Below are positions 6,384 to 25,223 of a stretch of DNA of 64,000 bases, piece by piece (position 1 is the first letter of the stretch; the number at the start of each line of letters is the position of its first letter). The notes beneath the pieces are model-generated. The model was given only the letters and a program-made list of their open reading frames with translations. It did no database searches and was not told the DNA's origin. Both the position numbers and the translations under genes were made by a program. Origin of the DNA: Flavobacterium sp. (lineage in GTDB: Bacteria; Bacteroidota; Bacteroidia; Flavobacteriales; Flavobacteriaceae). The stretch spans positions 7,314 to 71,313 of the forward strand of contig NZ_JANNXH010000004.1 of NCBI RefSeq assembly GCF_031409475.1, in the 5' to 3' direction.

Positions 6384-8420
6384 ATGAAAGTACTACAATT
6401 CCCTTTGGCGCGGATTACTATTGGGTTCATATTAGGCATTCTTCTTACGCATTATTTTCAGCCCAAACCGAATCATGTATTTGTGTTGCTTTTTGTTGCT
6501 GTTTGTGTTTTTGTAACTTCTTATTTCACTTCCAAAAAGACTTTTACAAACCCGATTTACTTTGGTTTAACCACCTATTTTCTTGCTTTTGGCATTGGCG
6601 CAAGCACGCAAATTATTCATACTCATTCTTTTCAAAAAAAAAATTATACGCATCATAAAAAAATTTATGAACAACCTCATTTGATCTCTGCAACCATTAG
6701 AGAAAAACTCCGAAGTTCATCGTATAGCGACCGTTATATTGTTTTAATAAAAAGCATTGATAGCGAAAATCGTTCGGGTAGAGTTCTTTTGAACATCAAA
6801 AAAGACAGCCTGAATCGTCCATTAACAATAGGTTCTCATGTTCAATTTTATGGTGATTTTGTTAAAAATACACCAGCAAAAAACCCCAACCAATTTGATT
6901 ACAGCAAATACCTCCGAAGCAAACAAATTTATGCACAGCTTTATGCCGATGCTAGTGAACTCAAAATAGGTTCGGGTGTTGAAAAAAACGTTTGGTATTA
7001 CACCTCGAGATTGCGAACAAGAATCATTGAGAATTTAGAAAAAAGCAATTTCAATAAAGCAGAACTCAACGTTGCCATTGCCTTAATTCTAGGGCAACAA
7101 CAGGAAATTTCGCCCGAAATTATCAAGGATTATCAATATGCTGGTGCGGTTCATATATTGTCGGTTTCGGGATTGCATATTGGATTTATCTTGCTGTTTG
7201 TAACGTTCTTGCTCCAACCTTTTCCTAACACAAAGCGTGGTTCGTTTATCAAATTGATTGTTATTCTCCTGTCGTTGTTTTCGTTTGGGTTAATAGCGGG
7301 TTTGGCACCATCTGTATTGCGCTCGGTTACGATGTTTTCGTTTGTCGCTGTTGGAATGTATTTGCGCCGAAGCACGAATATTTATCATACTTTACTAGTT
7401 TCGATGTTGCTCATTTTACTTTTTGAACCGTCGTTTTTGTTTGATGTGGGTTTCCAGTTGAGTTATGTTGCTTTGTTTTTTATTCTTTGGTTGCAACCAT
7501 TATTAGCCCAACTTTGGACGCCAAAAAATAAAATTGCGATTTATTTTTGGGACATTCTCACGGTTTCGTTTGCGGCACAAATGGGTGCTTTTCCTTTGAG
7601 TATTTATTATTTTCATCAGTTTCCGGGATTATTTTTTGTGACAAATTTAGTTATTATTCCGTTTTTGAGTTTGATCATGGCGTTGGGAGTTGTGGTCATG
7701 GTTTTGGCAGCGTTTGATTATGTTCCGCTTTTTCTCTCCAAAGCATTAGAATGGAGTATTTTTATTTTGAACAAAATCATCAATGCGATCGCCTCGTTAG
7801 AGCAATTTATCATTCGGGATATTCCGTTCAATTGGCAGTTGTTGTTGAGTGTTAATTTGGTTATTATTGCGACCATTCTTTGGTTTAAAAAACCTGGTTT
7901 CAATAGGCTTATTTTTGCTTTGGTTGCCGTAATTATTTTCCAAATTTCCTGTTTTGAAACGCATTGGAGGATACAAAACCAAAGAGAATTAGTAGTATTC
8001 AATTCAAAGAAAAATACGCTGATTGCTGAACGCATTGGCGAAAATGTGCTGTTATATGCTAATGACAGTCTTATGAAAACAGCCTGCAATAATCAATTTG
8101 TATCGGCATATTTAATGGGAAATTTTAGTCGTTTGACGGCTCGAAAAAAACTTGAAAATGTGATTTATTTTAAAGAAAATAAAATTCTGATTATAGACAG
8201 TTCTGGGGTTTATCTAAACGGAATTCATCCCGATATTGTCGTACTTACTCAGTCTCCAAAAATAAATTTAGAACGCTTTTTACAAACTGCAAAACCAAAA
8301 ATGATTGTTGCGGATGCCTCAAATTATAAAACGATTCAAAAGCTTTGGAAAGCCACTTGCTTGAAACAAAAAATCCCTTTTCACTCCACAAGTGAAAAGG
8401 GATTTTATAGATTAGATTAA
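6384..8420 (+). CDS. comEC: ComEC/Rec2 family competence protein
   Basis: Multi-TM protein with HILSVSGLHIG and PSVLRS motifs, FDVGFQLSY. ATG at 6384 preferred over the TTG at 6348. Confidence 0.9.
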   Translation: MKVLQFPLARITIGFILGILLTHYFQPKPNHVFVLLFVAVCVFVTSYFTSKKTFTNPIYFGLTTYFLAFGIGASTQIIHTHSFQKKNYTHHKKIYEQPHLISATIREKLRSSSYSDRYIVLIKSIDSENRSGRVLLNIKKDSLNRPLTIGSHVQFYGDFVKNTPAKNPNQFDYSKYLRSKQIYAQLYADASELKIGSGVEKNVWYYTSRLRTRIIENLEKSNFNKAELNVAIALILGQQQEISPEIIKDYQYAGAVHILSVSGLHIGFILLFVTFLLQPFPNTKRGSFIKLIVILLSLFSFGLIAGLAPSVLRSVTMFSFVAVGMYLRRSTNIYHTLLVSMLLILLFEPSFLFDVGFQLSYVALFFILWLQPLLAQLWTPKNKIAIYFWDILTVSFAAQMGAFPLSIYYFHQFPGLFFVTNLVIIPFLSLIMALGVVVMVLAAFDYVPLFLSKALEWSIFILNKIINAIASLEQFIIRDIPFNWQLLLSVNLVIIATILWFKKPGFNRLIFALVAVIIFQISCFETHWRIQNQRELVVFNSKKNTLIAERIGENVLLYANDSLMKTACNNQFVSAYLMGNFSRLTARKKLENVIYFKENKILIIDSSGVYLNGIHPDIVVLTQSPKINLERFLQTAKPKMIVADASNYKTIQKLWKATCLKQKIPFHSTSEKGFYRLD

Positions 8421-8429
8421 GAAAATTAT
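8352..8429 (+). repeat. Direct repeat copy 1 (comEC 3' end) flanking the PIN TA module
   Basis: Matches 9113-9189 with 6 substitutions and one 1-nt indel; last 42 bp identical. Confidence 0.9.
8370..8406. terminator. 15-bp perfect hairpin embedded in the comEC coding 3' end; likely terminator for the convergent minus-strand transcript
   Basis: AAAATCCCTTTTCAC-tccacaa-GTGAAAAGGGATTTT, encoding K-I-P-F-H-S-T-S-E-K-G-F. Confidence 0.6.
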
Positions 8430-8438
8430 GGTCTATTG

Positions 8439-8837
8439 TTACAAACTTAAAAATTCAAATCTTGAAATTGTAATTATTGGAGGAATTGAAATATGACTTA
8501 ATAATAGTTTGTCTCCAGTTACCAATATACTTTTTGTTTCAATACAAAGGTCGTACAAATAATTGTCGTCTTCGTCTGGAGCTTCTTTATATCGCTGCAT
8601 TATTTGAATGTTTTCGCAATTATTTTTTATTAAATCAACATATTCAATTCCTGGAAGAATTAAATGTTTTTTAATTTTTTTTCTCCCCAAAACATCTTCA
8701 ATCTCATTTACCATTTCGGGGCAAATGTAAATTTGCAGTTTTTTTTCTTCTATATAATTCAAAAGCGTCTTTTCGGAATTAGTAATAATGGCACTTACCC
8801 AAATATTGGTGTCAAGTACAAAACTATTATTCTGCAT
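8439..8837 (-). CDS. PIN-domain toxin of a type II TA system (VapC-like)
   Basis: FVLDTNIWVSA, DEDDNYLYDLC and LVTGDKLL acidic PIN motifs; overlaps the upstream small gene by 11 nt. Confidence 0.85.
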   Translation of the reverse strand: MQNNSFVLDTNIWVSAIITNSEKTLLNYIEEKKLQIYICPEMVNEIEDVLGRKKIKKHLILPGIEYVDLIKNNCENIQIMQRYKEAPDEDDNYLYDLCIETKSILVTGDKLLLSHISIPPIITISRFEFLSL

Positions 8838-19950: not shown

Positions 19951-21201
19951 TTAATAGAATTTTCTTTTTACAAACCATTTATCGTTAAGTGAAAAACTAA
20001 AACTTAAATTAGCATAATTCTCTTGTACTAAATTAGCGGCTGTCGTCCCTTTTTTGCCAAGTTCAAATCCAATATTTACGTTAGAAAAAGAACCTGTTAA
20101 AGGCAAACCAACTCCTAGAGTTAGGCCAATATCATTAATCGATTCTGAATTGATGATTAATCCTGTTTTTTCATATCTTAGACCACCTCTATAAACAATT
20201 CGTTTAGCATAACTTGTAAATGAATTGTAGTTAGGCAAGTAATAACCGCCAAGACTAAATTTTGTGGCTTTTTCGTAGGTTGCGTTTGCAATGGCGTTAT
20301 AGTTATTTGCTAATCCACCTTTGTCTTGCAAAGTGATTTCGGCACCCAAAAGCCATTTCTTATTTTCGCCAAATCCAGCACCAATAGAAAGTTTGCTCGG
20401 CAATTTTAAATTTGTACTGTTTTGTTGATTTTCTAACTCATCGACAACCTGTATGTCAAAAGACGAATTGTAACTCACTGTAGAGATGTTTCTTGTGTTT
20501 TGAGATACTAAAGTACTCTCTGGAGAATAGGTTAAACTGCTATAAAATGTTGTTTTTTTATTTATTTTTGATTGGTACATCAACCCTAAATCAAAATTTA
20601 TTCCAGACAATTCCGCAGTATTCAGTTCTCTTGAACCTATTGGAACAAAGGGTCTAAACTCAAGATTATTAGTTTCTATTTTTCCAAAATTATATTGCGC
20701 ATCTATTCCAACACTAAGGTTTTTTGCCAATTGATACCCAAACCCTAAAAAAGCTTTGTTTAAACCGCCGGTGCCATTAAATCGTTTGCTGTTTTGGGTA
20801 ACATCAGTAGCAACAACTTGTATTTTATACCCAACAGAAGTAAACGGTATTAATCCAAAACCAAAGCCTAATTTCCCTAAGGGTAATCCTATCGCTAAAT
20901 AATCCAAGGTAGTTCTACGTGCGCTTGCATTTTGACTATTGGTTTTAAGTTTAGTGGTTTTGTATGTTCCTCCAATGGTAAAAGTGGTCAATTTTAAGTT
21001 AGAAAACCCTGCAGGATTTTGCAAATTAATATGGATACTATCCGGTTCAATTGCTATACCTGCCATCGAACGGCTTTCAACAGTACCTTTGAATCGCACA
21101 TCGCCAATTCCATAAAAAGAATAAGGTGATGCTGTTCCATCTTGTGCAAAAGACACTAAAGTTAAAAGCAAACAAGTGCTTACTATAATTTTTTTAATCA
21201 T
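19951..21201 (-). CDS. Outer-membrane beta-barrel protein (FadL/PorV-like)
   Basis: Signal peptide, SPYSFYGIG, NPA motif, alternating beta-strand C-terminus; overlaps the coaX stop. Confidence 0.7.
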   Translation of the reverse strand: MIKKIIVSTCLLLTLVSFAQDGTASPYSFYGIGDVRFKGTVESRSMAGIAIEPDSIHINLQNPAGFSNLKLTTFTIGGTYKTTKLKTNSQNASARRTTLDYLAIGLPLGKLGFGFGLIPFTSVGYKIQVVATDVTQNSKRFNGTGGLNKAFLGFGYQLAKNLSVGIDAQYNFGKIETNNLEFRPFVPIGSRELNTAELSGINFDLGLMYQSKINKKTTFYSSLTYSPESTLVSQNTRNISTVSYNSSFDIQVVDELENQQNSTNLKLPSKLSIGAGFGENKKWLLGAEITLQDKGGLANNYNAIANATYEKATKFSLGGYYLPNYNSFTSYAKRIVYRGGLRYEKTGLIINSESINDIGLTLGVGLPLTGSFSNVNIGFELGKKGTTAANLVQENYANLSFSFSLNDKWFVKRKFY

Positions 21202-21928
21202 TTTTGATTTTATATTGAAATGTTTGGTTCATACTTTCTAAAAGAAAATTTGAATTGGCAAATATGGTATTTTTTAATCGTTTAGCCAAAAATTCTGCGT
21301 CTCCACCCGTTAAAATTATTATAAAGTTTGAATAATGTGTCTTATAATGATTGATAAATCCATCTATTTCGTTTGTCAAACCATTTACCACTCCAGAATG
21401 AATGGATTCAACAGTCGATTTTCCAATAAAATTTTTGGGGTTTTCTAAAGTCAATAAGGGTAATTTTGCGGTGTAATTATGCAATGCTTCATACCTCAAT
21501 CGCAATCCAGGCGAAATAGCGCCACCAAGATAATTATTATTTTCATCAATAAAATCATAGGTTACGCAAGTTCCTGCATCAATAACTAGTCGGTTCTGGT
21601 TAGGAAACAATAATGTCGCTCCAGCCGAGTTTACTAATCTATCAATGCCTAAAGTATGCGGTGTTTCGTAGGTGTTTTTAAATGGAAATGGGTCATTATG
21701 AGAAATAAAATGTACATTTATAATAGTACTAAAATTAAAAAAGACCAGTTTATCAACATCTCCAACCGATGCAACAATTAAATAGGATGTTTTTTTATAT
21801 TTTTCTAAAATATTTTGAATGCTTTTGTGGAGATCTGTTTTTAAGAAAACAAACTGCTCGAGTAGGATATCTTCCTCAAAAACAGCACCTTTAATCCTGG
21901 TATTCCCAACATCTACAACTAGAATCAT
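21194..21928 (-). CDS. coaX: Type III pantothenate kinase
   Basis: VVDVGNTRIK, LGIDR, VIDAGTCVTYD, GGAISPG, LTGGD. Confidence 0.93.
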   Translation of the reverse strand: MILVVDVGNTRIKGAVFEEDILLEQFVFLKTDLHKSIQNILEKYKKTSYLIVASVGDVDKLVFFNFSTIINVHFISHNDPFPFKNTYETPHTLGIDRLVNSAGATLLFPNQNRLVIDAGTCVTYDFIDENNNYLGGAISPGLRLRYEALHNYTAKLPLLTLENPKNFIGKSTVESIHSGVVNGLTNEIDGFINHYKTHYSNFIIILTGGDAEFLAKRLKNTIFANSNFLLESMNQTFQYKIKND

Positions 21929-21979
21929 AATTTATATTTGATGAAGCAAATGTACGAATAGATTTTTTTTAATAATTGT

Positions 21980-22010
21980 TTTGTATAAATTAAAAATCCT
22001 GCTATATTTG
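21980..22010 (+). promoter_or_regulatory. tRNA-Phe promoter (-33/-7)
   Basis: TTTG (21980-83), 19-nt spacer, TATATTTG (22003-10). Confidence 0.75.
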
Positions 22011-22026
22011 CACCCGCGTTAAGCAC

Positions 22027-22099
22027 GGTACCTTAGCTCAGATGGTAGAGCAATGGACTGAAAATCCATGTGTCCCTGGTTCGATCCCTGGAGGTACCA
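22027..22099 (+). tRNA. tRNA-Phe (GAA)
   Basis: Acceptor GGTACCT/AGGTACC, D-arm GCTC/GAGC, anticodon stem ATGGA/TCCAT with loop CTGAAAA, GGTTCGA T-loop; CCA not encoded. Confidence 0.97.
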
Positions 22100-22410
22100 C
22101 AAAACCCACTTTTAATGAGTGGGTTTTTTTTTTCAAACATTTTTTATGGCATCCCATTCTCTTTACATTTTATATTCTAGATCTAATATAAAATATTATG
22201 TGGGCGAAACTCATAATATTGAAGAAAGAATATTAAAACACAATCAACATTTGTATTCTAATTCCTTTACAAAAATTGCTAATGATTGGGAATAAGTCTT
22301 ATTACATCATTGTGAGAATAGAACAAAAGCCCTTTTTCTTGAAAAATTTATTAAGAAAATGAAAAGCAAAGTTTTCATTCAAAAGATAATTTCAAATCCT
22401 AAAATATTAA
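22088..22410 (+). repeat. Direct repeat unit 1: tRNA 3' end + terminator + GIY-YIG gene
   Basis: ~97% identical to 23271-23592 (about 9 substitutions, 1 indel), offset 1183 bp. Confidence 0.95.
22101..22127 (+). terminator. Intrinsic terminator after tRNA-Phe (repeated at ~23284-23310)
   Basis: AAAACCCACT-tttaatg-AGTGGGTTTT followed by a T-run. Confidence 0.85.
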
Positions 22411-22439
22411 ATGAAATTATTTTAAAAAATAATATTTAA
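22146..22439 (+). pseudogene. Small GIY-YIG nuclease, inactivated by a TTA>TAA nonsense change at codon 50
   Basis: MASHSLYILYS..KYYVGETHNIEERILKHN..DWE*VLL..NEIILKNNI; stop at 22293-95 where copy 2 has TTA. Confidence 0.85.
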
Positions 22440-22457
22440 TCCATTTGACCCTAGTTC
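22438..22457 (+). repeat. Left part of a duplicated tRNA-Phe 3' half
   Basis: AATCCATTTGACCCTAGTTC vs tRNA 22063-22082 AATCCATGTGTCCCTGGTTC (17/20); the remainder CTGGAGGTACCA resumes at 23271. Confidence 0.75.
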
Positions 22458-22479
22458 TCCCGATTGCGAAGTTTCGGGA
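22458..22479. repeat. CCCGA/TCGGG palindromic repeat at the left junction of the parDE module
   Basis: TCCCGA-ttgcgaagtt-TCGGGA; GTTTCGGGA recurs at 23257-23265. Confidence 0.7.
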
Positions 22480-22567
22480 AACTTTCGAGCGAAAGAAAAT
22501 CGAAAAAACAATAGAAAATTTGTTGCAGAATACCATAAATTGGTATATTTATAAAAAATATAAAATT

Positions 22568-22813
22568 ATGGCACGAAATACATCAATTTTAATTGGAGAA
22601 TATTACGAAAATTTTATAAACAGACAAATTGCTACAGGAAAATATAATTCTGTAAGCGAAGTTGTTAGAACTGCTTTGAGATATTTTGAACAGGAAGAAA
22701 TGAAAACTAAATCTCTAATTGCAGAATTAGAACTTGGAGAAAAAAGTGAAAAAATCCGAAATTTTAACCGAACTGAAAATTTAAAACGGTTAAACGAAAA
22801 TTTCCAAAAGTAA
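22568..22813 (+). CDS. parD: ParD-family (RHH) antitoxin
   Basis: MARNTSILIGEYYENFINRQIATGKYNSVSEVVRTALR; ATG at 22568 (the track's 22445 start is an extension). Confidence 0.88.
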   Translation: MARNTSILIGEYYENFINRQIATGKYNSVSEVVRTALRYFEQEEMKTKSLIAELELGEKSEKIRNFNRTENLKRLNENFQK

Positions 22814-23112
22814 TGGCGGAATATATCATAAGTGAAAAAGCACTTGACGATTTGAATACTATTTGGATTTACACAGCGGAAAATTGGTCGCTTGAACAAG
22901 CAAACCGATATTATAATTTGATAATGGACGAAATAGAATTTGTTGCAGAAAATTTTGAAACAAGCAAAGATTTTGGAAGTATTCGAAAAGATTATCGATT
23001 TTCAAAAGTGAAATCGCATTTAATATTTTGCAAACGAGTTGAAAATACTGAAATGGAAGTAGTGAGAATTTTGCATGAAAAAATGGATATTAAAAATAGA
23101 ATTAACGATTAA
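22813..23112 (+). CDS. parE: ParE/RelE-family toxin
   Basis: YIISEKALDDLNTIWIYT..WSLEQANRY..HLIF..VVRILHEKMD; TAATG overlap with parD. Confidence 0.9.
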   Translation: MAEYIISEKALDDLNTIWIYTAENWSLEQANRYYNLIMDEIEFVAENFETSKDFGSIRKDYRFSKVKSHLIFCKRVENTEMEVVRILHEKMDIKNRIND

Positions 23113-23130
23113 AATAAAAAAAAAGTGATT

Positions 23131-23263
23131 GCACAAGAGCCACTTGGCGCAATTGCGAATTTTGTTTTAAATCCACGTTCACGTTTAGCAAGAATTTTTA
23201 TCTTTAACAGAAAATAAAAAGTTCCGAAGTTCGCAACTGACCAGAAGCGGCGGAACGTTTCGG
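23131..23263 (+). mobile_element. attC-like imperfect inverted-repeat site downstream of parE
   Basis: Degenerate R''-like GCACAAG (23131-37) and R'-like GTT (23257-59); arms GCCACTTGGCGCAATTGCGAA / TTCGCAACTGACCAGAAGCGGC; ~130 bp, starting 19 nt after the parE stop. Confidence 0.5.
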
Positions 23264-23270
23264 GACGAGA

Positions 23271-23592
23271 CTGGAGGTACCACAAAACCCACTTATTATG
23301 AGTGGATTTTTTTTTCAAACATTTTTTATGGCATCCCATTCACTTTACATTTTATATTCTAGATCTAATATAAAATATTATGTGGGCGAAACTCATAATA
23401 TTGAAGAAAGAATATTAAAACACAATCAGCATTTGTATTCTAATTCCTTTACAAAAATTGCTAATGATTGGGAATTAGTCTTATTACATCATAGTGAGGA
23501 TAGAACAAAAGCCCTTTTTCTTGAAAAATTTATTAAGAAAATGAAAAGCAAAATTTTCATTCAAAAGATAATTTCAAATCCTAAAATATTAA
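23271..23592 (+). repeat. Direct repeat unit 2: tRNA 3' end + terminator + GIY-YIG gene
   Basis: Begins CTGGAGGTACCACAAAACCCACT, identical to the tRNA-Phe 3' end and its downstream sequence. Confidence 0.95.
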
Positions 23593-23600
23593 AGGACTAA
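23328..23600 (+). CDS. Small GIY-YIG nuclease (90 aa; C-terminus 7 aa shorter than copy 1)
   Basis: YILYS..YYVGET.N.EER..HN GIY-YIG signature; ATG at 23328. Confidence 0.8.
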   Translation: MASHSLYILYSRSNIKYYVGETHNIEERILKHNQHLYSNSFTKIANDWELVLLHHSEDRTKALFLEKFIKKMKSKIFIQKIISNPKILKD

Positions 23601-23714
23601 CAAAGTTTTTTATTTTTGTTAAAAAAATAATGATATAAATAACTTTTAACATTCTATATTCGCAAAACTTAACTATATCGTTATATATCTCAAAAAAAAT
23701 TAAAATACTATCTT

Positions 23715-25223
23715 ATGAGTAATAAATCAACAAAAGGAATCTGGAAAGTAATTTCTGCGTCCTCGATGGGCACAATGATTGAATGGTATGATTTTTATAT
23801 TTTTGGTAGTTTAGCCGTTGTAATCTCAACAAAATTCTTTCCTTCGGATAATCCTACGGCAGCCTTTTTATCAACATTGGCCACTTTTGCAGCTGGATTT
23901 GTAGTAAGACCTTTTGGAGCACTTTTTTTTGGAAGACTAGGTGATTTAATTGGTAGAAAATATACTTTTATGGTAACCTTAATGTTGATGGGTGGTGCTA
24001 CTTTTTTGATAGGATGTATTCCGAGTTACGAAACTATTGGTTATTTAGCTCCTTTTTTAGTTTTAATATTAAGACTTCTTCAAGGTTTAGCACTTGGTGG
24101 TGAATACGGTGGCGCAGCAACTTATGTAGCTGAACATGCCCCAAAAGGACAGCGCGGTTATTGGACTTCGTGGATACAAACTACGGCAACTGTAGGGTTG
24201 TTTATTTCATTGATGGTTATTCTTGCAACAAAAAACATACTAACTCCAGAACAATTTGATGCTTGGGGTTGGAGAGTTCCTTTTTGGGTATCGATTATTA
24301 TGGTAGTTGTTTCGTATATGATTAGAAAAAACATGGACGAATCCCCAGTTTTTGCCAAAGCTAAAGCCGAAGGAAAAACAAGTACAAATCCGTTGAAAGA
24401 AAGTTTCGGAAATCGTTACAATCTCAAATTTGTCTTACTGGCTTTGTTTGGAGCTACGATGGGACAAGGAGTGGTCTGGTACACAGGACAATTCTACGCA
24501 ATGAGTTTCATGAAAACGGTGCTGAATATTGACAGTTCGCAAGTAGATACTTTACTTGGAATTGCTTTACTGCTCGGAACTCCTTTCTTTATTGTTTTTG
24601 GATGGTTGAGTGATAAAATAGGTCGCAAAAGCATCATGATGACTGGAATGTTGCTGGCAATTTTATTGTATCGCCCGATATACAAAACGATGTATGAAAC
24701 GGTCGATGTCAAAAATAAAATAGTTTTGAAAATGGAAGAAAACATTCCAAAAAAAGCTGATTTTAAAAAAGGAGAGGCTTATTTTAGTACCACAACTGAA
24801 TATAAAGATGGAACCGTCTCGCATAAAACTTTTACAACTCAATTAGGCAGTGGAGAAATAAAATCGGATACGACAATATCAACCCTCACTATTAATACAA
24901 ACGACAAATGGGTATTGATTTTTATGGTCTGGATTCAGGTTATTTTTGTAACAATGGTTTATGGTCCAATTGCGGCTTTTCTTGTTGAGATGTTTCCAAC
25001 AAAAATTCGCTACACATCAATGTCATTGCCTTACCATGTTGGAAATGGAATTTTTGGAGGTCTGCTTCCGGCTGTATCAACCTATTTTGTAACCAATGCA
25101 AAAAACAATGCAGATCCTGAGTTTTATTTAGCCGGATTATGGTATCCAATAGCAATTGCATCGGTTTGTTTTGTGATTGGAATGATTTATTTGAGTTGGA
25201 AAAACGAAACTATTAACGATTAA
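23715..25223 (+). CDS. MFS transporter, metabolite:H+ symporter family
   Basis: IEWYDF, RPFGALFFGRLGDLIGRK, GGEYGGA, EMFPTKIRYT. Confidence 0.88.
   Translation: MSNKSTKGIWKVISASSMGTMIEWYDFYIFGSLAVVISTKFFPSDNPTAAFLSTLATFAAGFVVRPFGALFFGRLGDLIGRKYTFMVTLMLMGGATFLIGCIPSYETIGYLAPFLVLILRLLQGLALGGEYGGAATYVAEHAPKGQRGYWTSWIQTTATVGLFISLMVILATKNILTPEQFDAWGWRVPFWVSIIMVVVSYMIRKNMDESPVFAKAKAEGKTSTNPLKESFGNRYNLKFVLLALFGATMGQGVVWYTGQFYAMSFMKTVLNIDSSQVDTLLGIALLLGTPFFIVFGWLSDKIGRKSIMMTGMLLAILLYRPIYKTMYETVDVKNKIVLKMEENIPKKADFKKGEAYFSTTTEYKDGTVSHKTFTTQLGSGEIKSDTTISTLTINTNDKWVLIFMVWIQVIFVTMVYGPIAAFLVEMFPTKIRYTSMSLPYHVGNGIFGGLLPAVSTYFVTNAKNNADPEFYLAGLWYPIAIASVCFVIGMIYLSWKNETIND

Follow-up and report, generated by a model that had tools for sequence, protein, structure and literature searches.

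A solitary parDE module in Flavobacterium as a probable cassette of an integron-like gene-capture system

We analyzed a 64-kb stretch of Flavobacterium sp. DNA (64,000 nucleotides of contig NZ_JANNXH010000004.1, hereafter the window) and examined a parDE toxin-antitoxin (TA) module that lies near a tRNA-Phe gene and ends in an attC-like element of about 130 nt; all features of the locus are on the + strand. Both genes are intact: parD (22568-22813) encodes an antitoxin of 81 aa (PF03693, 1.5e-20; TIGR02606, 2.3e-18) and parE (22813-23112) a toxin of 99 aa (PF05016, 7.2e-13). The parD stop and the parE start share TAATG, by which the genes overlap by 1 nt, and this adjacent pair of small genes matched the profiles of type II ParD/ParE systems, which is the basis of its predicted function. 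ParE is 64-96% identical to the ParE proteins of 80 loci, nearly all from Flavobacterium or other Bacteroidota, and an exact-sequence look-up of the window ParE gave no record. Upstream of parD, the module has a 5' region of its own (22480-22567, 88 bp) with a palindrome, ATACCATAAATTGGTAT, at 22530-22546 and an A/T-rich promoter-like stretch. This region is 82-91% identical to the sequence upstream of parD in most of 19 matched loci (about 80% in two), and the palindrome is kept in nearly all of 30 aligned parDE cassettes; the region is probably the parDE promoter and operator, as judged from this conservation. Downstream of parE lies the attC-like site (23131-23259), a decayed copy assigned by nhmmer and covariance-model (CM) family membership, which consists of an R'' box GCAC-AAG (23131-23137), two inner arms (23138-23162 and 23227-23256) and a terminal GTT (23257-23259). 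The original prediction, made from the window sequence, had described a TA pair with its own upstream region, a GTT at both module ends (22471-22473 and 23257-23259) and a 5' core changed from AAC to AAG, and all three held, except that the two ends share in fact 9 bp. It had also called the module solitary with no intI in the window, in agreement with our scans: the CM detected only one attC-like copy in the 64 kb (99.1 bits, a score qualified by the presence of this copy in the training alignment; the next match had 14.5 bits, E 0.39), and no integrase homologue was found in the window. We interpret 22472-23257 as one cassette of an integron-like gene-capture system that is widespread in Flavobacterium and also occurs in other Bacteroidota, with a probability of about 0.8, on the basis of family membership, array structure, covariation, a boundary rule, integrase linkage and an empty-site homologue, all of which were obtained here.

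First, the element belongs to a family of repeats that forms arrays. It matches copies in other Flavobacterium genomes (at best 88.8% over 107 nt, in locus L070, E 5e-35), and the family was built by fetching loci encoding ParE relatives, followed by iterated nhmmer searches. These yielded 177 matches, which represent 142 distinct copies and come from 66 loci; without exception they share the strand of parE or of the integrase. At least two family repeats were present in 42 loci and at least four in 19, with seven in L052 and five each in L001, L039 and L050. F. lacisediminis TH16-21, F. fragile HXWNR69 and Flavobacterium sp. H122 are among the genomes that carry arrays. The 78 unique intervals between repeats have a median length of 698 bp, and the longest open reading frame (ORF) was on the same strand in 70 of them. 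Each array unit is composed of one ORF and one repeat, and the ORFs, which encode lipoproteins, GNAT, glyoxalase and DinB proteins, MazEF, a reversed HigBA, short-chain dehydrogenases and a second parDE, are unrelated to one another. Copies behind unrelated ORFs in arrays, which the original prediction had proposed to look for, are present in other Flavobacterium genomes, on the same strand within an array. The parDE cassette is often the last one of its array (L012, L030, L050), and two different parDE cassettes adjoin in one array (L039, 147-691 and 908-1443).

Second, the family has a conserved structure. Its consensus is nnnYAAC-A-GCGGTTTGGCGAA-A-TTGGGG ... CCCCAA-C-TTCGCCAAGCCGC-GAAAC-GTTRnnn, and in a 53-copy alignment compensatory changes were observed in 18 of the 20 inner-stem pairs. 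Paired cells made up 80% of the inner stem and 75.8% of the whole 27-pair structure (30-44% with slid partners), and the observed covariation was reached by none of 500 shuffles. The predicted imperfect inverted repeat of about 130 bp was hence recovered as a covarying family, but not in the window copy alone, whose best pair of arms (13 nt at 85%) is no better than chance and whose folding z-scores against shuffled sequence are -0.5 to -1.1 on either strand. Among unique copies, AAC is kept in 121 of 132 (92%) and GTT in 101 of 115 (88%), so that the conserved ends expected of such a system were found, and the distance from AAC to GTT has a median of 125 nt (range 114-164). When attC is taken as an imperfect palindrome of 57-141 nt with AAC/GTT ends, the family qualifies, whereas the window copy has AAG. 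On the other hand, the canonical cores fit few copies (RYYYAAC 10/132, 8%; GTTRRRY 5/115, 4%): the family R-box consensus is nSMYAAC/GTTRKSn, which shares YAAC and GTTR with the canon and differs at the outer positions. Intact copies fold as one long hairpin, and in silico the bottom strand was more stable in all five tested (z-scores of -2.5 to -4.2, compared with -1.0 to -2.8 for the top strand), and its 5' arm showed a predicted 4-nt bulge and a single extrahelical base. Folding of the bottom strand to look for extrahelical bases had also been proposed in the original prediction. This strand, when folded, would be the most likely recombination substrate.

Third, a boundary rule defines the unit. 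The 4 nt after GTT were complementary to the 4 nt before the next downstream AAC, with a mean of 3.29 of 4 positions paired and perfect pairing in 43 of 70 cases, compared with 1.95 for the adjoining attC and 1.99 +/- 0.11 for shuffled partners. The corresponding values with species representatives only were 3.24, 2.04 and 1.95; across both sets, the spread for shuffled partners was +/- 0.11-0.13. This complementarity to the downstream site extends over 6-7 nt. By position, R-box pairing occurs in 73-88% of cassettes at positions 1-6, in 57% at position 7 and in 1 of 56 at position 8, and the sharp stop at position 8 suggests a conserved mismatch at the base of the R box. Because the arm after GTT pairs with the next downstream site, the moving unit is TT-arm...ORF...site...G, as in integron cassettes. 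Cassette turnover was observed between strains with identical ParE (L164 and L161): a dehydrogenase cassette of 927 bp, 99.8% identical, follows the attI-like site described below in L164 and an attC in L161, with homology beginning at the G of GTT, and L164 has a 1.69-kb cassette that L161 lacks, with edges lying exactly at attC ends. Similarly, homology among parDE cassettes begins right after GTT in at least 25 other contexts, and nearly all of the 30 aligned parDE cassettes open with GTT|GTGCGACAC TTTCGAG..., whatever the upstream sequence. These alignments indicate that each post-GTT arm is part of the cassette downstream of it and that the system follows a G|TT crossover logic.

Fourth, arrays are linked to a recombinase. 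Within 4 kb of parE, no tyrosine recombinase was detected by motif in any of the 80 loci, and the integrase surfaced only when 10-kb flanks were used: in L164 and L167, a 347-aa tyrosine recombinase (PF13495 and PF00589) is encoded on the cassette strand, with a housekeeping gene on one side and the first cassette on the other. A linked tyrosine recombinase, for which the original prediction had proposed to look, is thus found at the array heads. Among loci with relatives of this enzyme (L171-L201), the repeats lie downstream of it, up to eight in L172, seven in L181 and five in L194; only in L192 does one lie upstream, as a 47-nt fragment, and many recombinase contigs end within 1.5 kb of the gene. 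The CM extends the linkage between repeat and recombinase to loci of Bacteroidales, Maribellus, Chitinophagaceae and Ignavibacteria. About 150 bp past the recombinase stop, 20 platforms align to ...ATATAAAC(A/G)AG|TT and then diverge; this conserved sequence ending in AAG|TT is an attI equivalent. The recombinase gene is accessory, since in L162 the flanks are unchanged but an attC replaces the gene. L164 (2416-5390) contains the recombinase, attI and two cassettes, and in L162 (3737-5388) an attC abuts the housekeeping gene and precedes two cassettes that differ from those of L164. In distant Bacteroidota and Ignavibacteria (L196-L200, around 8001-8500), the recombinase adjoining the repeat is a truncated or frame-shifted remnant. 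A 64%-identical recombinase is also carried by the 57-kb Chryseobacterium oryzae plasmid NZ_CP094530.1 (L265, 9001-10674), where it is followed by a VOC-family gene and then by an IS91 transposase; no attC was detected by the CM at this locus.

The best sequence matches of the recombinase were of the XerA type. It scored 218.5 with the XerA-type (archaeal) model, for which the cut-off is 220, and 206.5, in two stretches, with the integron-integrase model TIGR02249, for which the cut-off is 265. Its best matches in the PDB were XerA-like (4a8e and 5hxy). Alignment to VchIntIA covered residues 9-184 and 247-319 only, and in comparison with IntI1 the protein is missing 44 aa including ALER, that is, the IntI additional domain, and has an N-terminal extension of 60-75 aa, a candidate for taking over the role of that domain. 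The integrase lies on the cassette strand in all loci rather than being divergent from the cassettes. Its relatives are named "site-specific tyrosine recombinase/integron integrase" at NCBI and "XerD" at JGI.

With these data, one alternative can be weighed, namely that the element of about 130 nt acts as a terminator or a regulatory RNA specific to parE, or else is a generic REP- or MITE-type intergenic repeat. Its position directly after the stop codon and its hairpin would fit such a role. However, the element follows dozens of unrelated ORFs, and neither complementarity within its own cassette, nor identical cassettes at different positions, nor linkage to an integrase and attI would be expected of a terminator or dispersed repeat. 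Moreover, it has no Rfam match: a scan of 21000-25000 returned the tRNA as the sole match and none for this element. We consider this explanation extremely improbable and rejected it because of the unrelated ORFs, the boundary pairing and the integrase linkage.

The insertion site of the cassette was then defined by the sequence around it. The tRNA-Phe gene (GAA anticodon, 22027-22100; ARAGORN, Rfam tRNA 66.6 bits), which provides context only, overlaps the left copy of a direct repeat of 327 bp (22088-22414 and 23271-23596, about 96-97% identical) that begins 13 nt inside the tRNA 3' end. Both copies include a tRNA 3' end, a terminator and a GIY-YIG gene. In the left copy (22088-22414) this gene is interrupted by TAA at 22293-22295; in the right copy (23271-23600), where the tRNA-Phe 3' end is duplicated at 23271-23282, the gene is intact (PF01541, 3.2e-12), with its ORF at 23298-23600 and a likely start at 23328. 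The 856 bp between the two copies hold a hairpin tail, the 88-bp upstream region, parD, parE, the element of about 130 nt and GTT TCGGGA CGAGA. Such an arrangement could indicate that parDE is the remnant of a tRNA-Phe genomic island with the 327-bp repeats as attL and attR, and the start of the direct repeat 13 nt inside the tRNA is in line with this possibility. Yet the same repeat structure occurs without parDE in 55 loci as GIY-YIG elements in tandem with a period of about 380 bp, the window has no integrase, and parDE with its repeat unit is found in arrays elsewhere. An island origin therefore seems very unlikely; it was rejected because there is no integrase in the window and because the 327-bp repeat consists of tandem GIY-YIG elements instead of att repeats.

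In these 55 loci, the unit of about 380 bp is found after tRNA-Phe, single or in tandem. Besides the GIY-YIG gene it contains a terminator, the hairpin TCTCCCGA-loop-TCGGGA and one copy of CTGGAGGTACCA, so that tandems of n genes carry n+1 tRNA ends (the last 12 nt of the tRNA). The unit looks like a homing element that targets the tRNA end, and we know of no description of a tRNA-Phe GIY-YIG element. Examples include the two window copies (22088-22414 and 23271-23600), L233 (600-2510), L237 (3080-4190), L254 (120-1310) and L226 (100-1215). L087 (2372-2758) has two complete tRNA-Phe genes separated by 240 bp; the space between them contains a hairpin and a tRNA-end remnant but no GIY-YIG gene. 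Orthologous loci with the order coaX-tRNA-Phe-MFS (L081-L160) contained no close relative and no attC, and it was there that the GIY-YIG/tRNA-end duplication was revealed. The 327-bp direct repeat of the window is thus two tandem GIY-YIG elements and is not integron-related.

The cassette lies in the unique hairpin that ends the first GIY-YIG element, outside repeated sequence. The left part of this target hairpin, at the right end of the element (22456-22479), reads TCTCCCGA TTGCGAAG TT TCGGGA and is colinear with uninterrupted 41-nt sites in L254 and L256 and with simpler sites in L116 and L087; the right arms (23257-23270) read GTTTCGGGA (23257-23265) followed by CGAGA and are likewise colinear with L254 and L256. 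Removal of the 786-bp insert, which spans 22472-23257 in the G|TT convention, gives an L254/L256-like site: the 41-nt site is TCTCCCGA TCCCGAAGCT TCGGGA CGGGA CTGGAGGTACCA in L254 and L256, and TCTCCCGA TTGCGAAGTT TCGGGA CGAGA CTGGAGGTACCA in the window without the insert, with four mismatches. This colinearity with an empty site places the cassette in the hairpin loop at GAAG|TT. The target resembles the attI core and other non-attC insertion points of parDE (...CAAGTT and ...AGAGTT). Furthermore, a second solitary cassette with a different ORF was found in L207 (3215-4060) at ...CAATAG|TT inside the second GIY-YIG copy by tRNA-Phe, with a clean junction and clean R'/R'' pairing. The module had been predicted to be inserted at G^TT of a repeat; the G|TT position stands, but the site is a GIY-YIG hairpin outside the repeated sequence and the left junction is not clean. 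It could also be supposed that a larger array once occupied the locus and that only this part of it survives, the sequence left of 22471 being the 3' end of a lost attC, as ...GCGAAGTT is faintly like the attC 3' consensus ...GCGAAACGTT. However, what precedes GTT aligns colinearly with the GIY-YIG hairpin in L254 and L256, GTTC TCCCGA is shared with L116 and L087, and neither the hidden Markov model (HMM) nor the CM shows another attC in the window. This view, to which we attach very little weight, was rejected because the left flank is the GIY-YIG hairpin and the window has no further attC.

A difficulty for the integron-like reading concerns the left junction, one of several points that weigh against it. 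The 9-bp direct repeat GTTTCGGGA (22471-22479 and 23257-23265) flanks the 786-bp insert, and the exact crossover cannot be placed within it. The left junction, GTT-TCGGGAA, is a second copy of the target arm, which a single G|TT exchange does not give; the insert is consequently flanked by 9 identical bp. The R'' box GATTGCAC-AAG predicts an R' arm GTT-GTGCAA(T), as in other parDE cassettes, and the lack of this arm makes the left junction depart from a clean G|TT. Complementarity of R' to R'', which is a feature of the family unit, is accordingly lost in the window (R'' GCAC with TCGG, 1 of 4 pairs), whereas its other features, homologous cassettes in arrays and a CM match, are present. The further points against are that the linked recombinase is without the domain that contacts extrahelical bases in classical integrons, with the consequence that folded-strand recombination by this enzyme stays hypothetical, and that no integrase is known for the genome of the window, of which the 64-kb window was examined.

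The junction leaves room for another explanation, in which the insert is a cassette of the same system but entered by a route that duplicates a target of about 9 bp, such as a staggered-cut insertion, a microhomology-mediated event, or a two-strand exchange with an overlap of about 8 bp followed by mismatch repair. The flanking 9-bp repeat and the loss of the 7-nt R' arm of the cassette speak for it. In addition, the odd 5' end of the window cassette, TTTCGGGAAAC, had no counterpart in metagenomes, where a scan for GTTTCGGGAAACTTTCGAGCG returned unrelated coding sequences only and no cassette lineage with that end. Against it, the 9-bp repeat starts exactly at the GTT of the attC and at the attI-core-like target GAAGTT, the replaced arm is exactly as long as a normal arm, and the GTT junctions are clean in other parDE cassettes that are solitary or stand first in an array. 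We regard such an entry route as unlikely, though less so than the alternatives considered above. The 9-bp repeat itself may possibly have originated from two-strand exchange with repair, from restoration of the TCCCGA/TCGGGA hairpin by templated correction, or from staggered-cut insertion.

The integron-like reading suggests the following course of events. At the array head, the 347-aa Xer-like tyrosine recombinase, followed by an attI-like site ...AAC(A/G)AG|TT, would insert, excise and reshuffle cassettes, each consisting of one ORF and a hairpin site of about 125 nt (YAAC...stem...GTTR), at or beside G|TT, with the hairpin site most likely serving as substrate in the form of its folded, single bottom strand. 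The parDE cassette would have left an array and entered a secondary, attI-core-like site, GAAG|TT, in the hairpin loop at the end of a GIY-YIG element by tRNA-Phe, an insertion presumably catalyzed by the integrase. It would now be stranded, with no integrase or second site in 64 kb, a decayed attC and no R' arm. The window attC copy has AAG in place of AAC, which occurs in only 2 of 132 copies, as well as three consecutive broken stem pairs, and its folding is lost; for these reasons the cassette looks immobile. It would probably persist as a self-expressed toxin-antitoxin module.

We further compared the system with known ones. As in sedentary chromosomal integrons and in clusters of attC sites without an integrase (CALINs), the arrays contain mostly single same-strand ORFs, each with an imperfect AAC...GTT palindrome of about 125 nt; the attC sites of the Vibrio cholerae superintegron, the VCRs, are also about 125 nt long. 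Likenesses to sedentary chromosomal integrons extend to the G|TT crossover with a post-GTT arm that belongs to the next cassette, the attI-like site beside a tyrosine recombinase, TA cassettes that carry a promoter of their own, and better predicted folding of the bottom strand with bulged bases, and cassette clusters far from any integrase resemble CALINs. In contrast with integrons, the Flavobacterium recombinase has no IntI domain of about 44 aa (ALER) and has a 60-75-aa N-terminal extension, falls below the integron-integrase cut-off (206.5 vs 265) and is co-oriented with the cassettes. The sites also differ, with an R-box consensus of nSMYAAC/GTTRKSn, an R box of 9-10 bp and an asymmetric internal loop of 1 x 5 nt beside it. 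In classical integrons, the IntI-specific domain contacts the extrahelical bases of folded attC and is held to be necessary for integron recombination. In "inverted" integrons, such as that of Treponema denticola, the integrase is co-oriented with the cassettes and attI lies downstream of the integrase, and the additional domain of IntI is kept; orientation and attI position are thus alike in the two systems, whereas the Flavobacterium recombinase is without the domain. The best sequence matches to XerA-type proteins and the simple CB+CAT architecture recall Xer-type recombinases (XerA, XerC/D), and Xer-dependent dif modules occur on Acinetobacter plasmids. Unlike Xer/dif systems, however, the recombinase is accessory between strains and located at array heads, and its sites are hairpins of about 125 nt instead of 28-bp dif-like sites. 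The module itself is like ParD/ParE integron cassettes in its overlapping genes and its own conserved upstream palindrome, and its proteins are ordinary, with predicted toxicity.

Because the recombinase lacks the IntI domain and has the same orientation as the cassettes, the system is not an integron in the strict sense. Of the features that define strict integrons, two are lacking, namely the IntI domain and core sites of canonical consensus, and the orientation of the integrase differs as well. The suggestion of a distinct Bacteroidota cassette system in the original prediction agrees with a linked recombinase that has no IntI-specific domain. A stronger claim would be that Flavobacterium and other Bacteroidota carry an undescribed class of integrons, with cassette arrays, attI, attC-type sites of about 125 nt and an Xer-like recombinase without the IntI domain, of which parDE is a stray cassette; we put forward this claim only tentatively, at slightly less than even odds. 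No description of Flavobacterium cassette arrays was found in the searchable literature, which did not extend to subscription journals. For Bacteroidetes, the IntegronFinder 2.0 paper lists a single complete integron, that of Salinibacter ruber, and otherwise only In0 elements, which came from an earlier study; Flavobacterium is unmentioned (PMC9024848).

If this interpretation is true, the full integron logic would operate with a recombinase that has no IntI domain. Either recombination of this kind would not always need the domain, or the same mechanism would have arisen in a second recombinase lineage. A gene-capture platform would thereby be placed in a large environmental phylum that includes fish pathogens and in which integron surveys report almost nothing. 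Surveys requiring the IntI domain probably undercount integrons, and tools that depend on it would miss the integrase. Finally, the odd insertion of parDE by tRNA-Phe in the window would be explained, together with many orphan units of one ORF plus a hairpin and the scattered TA pairs in Flavobacterium genomes.

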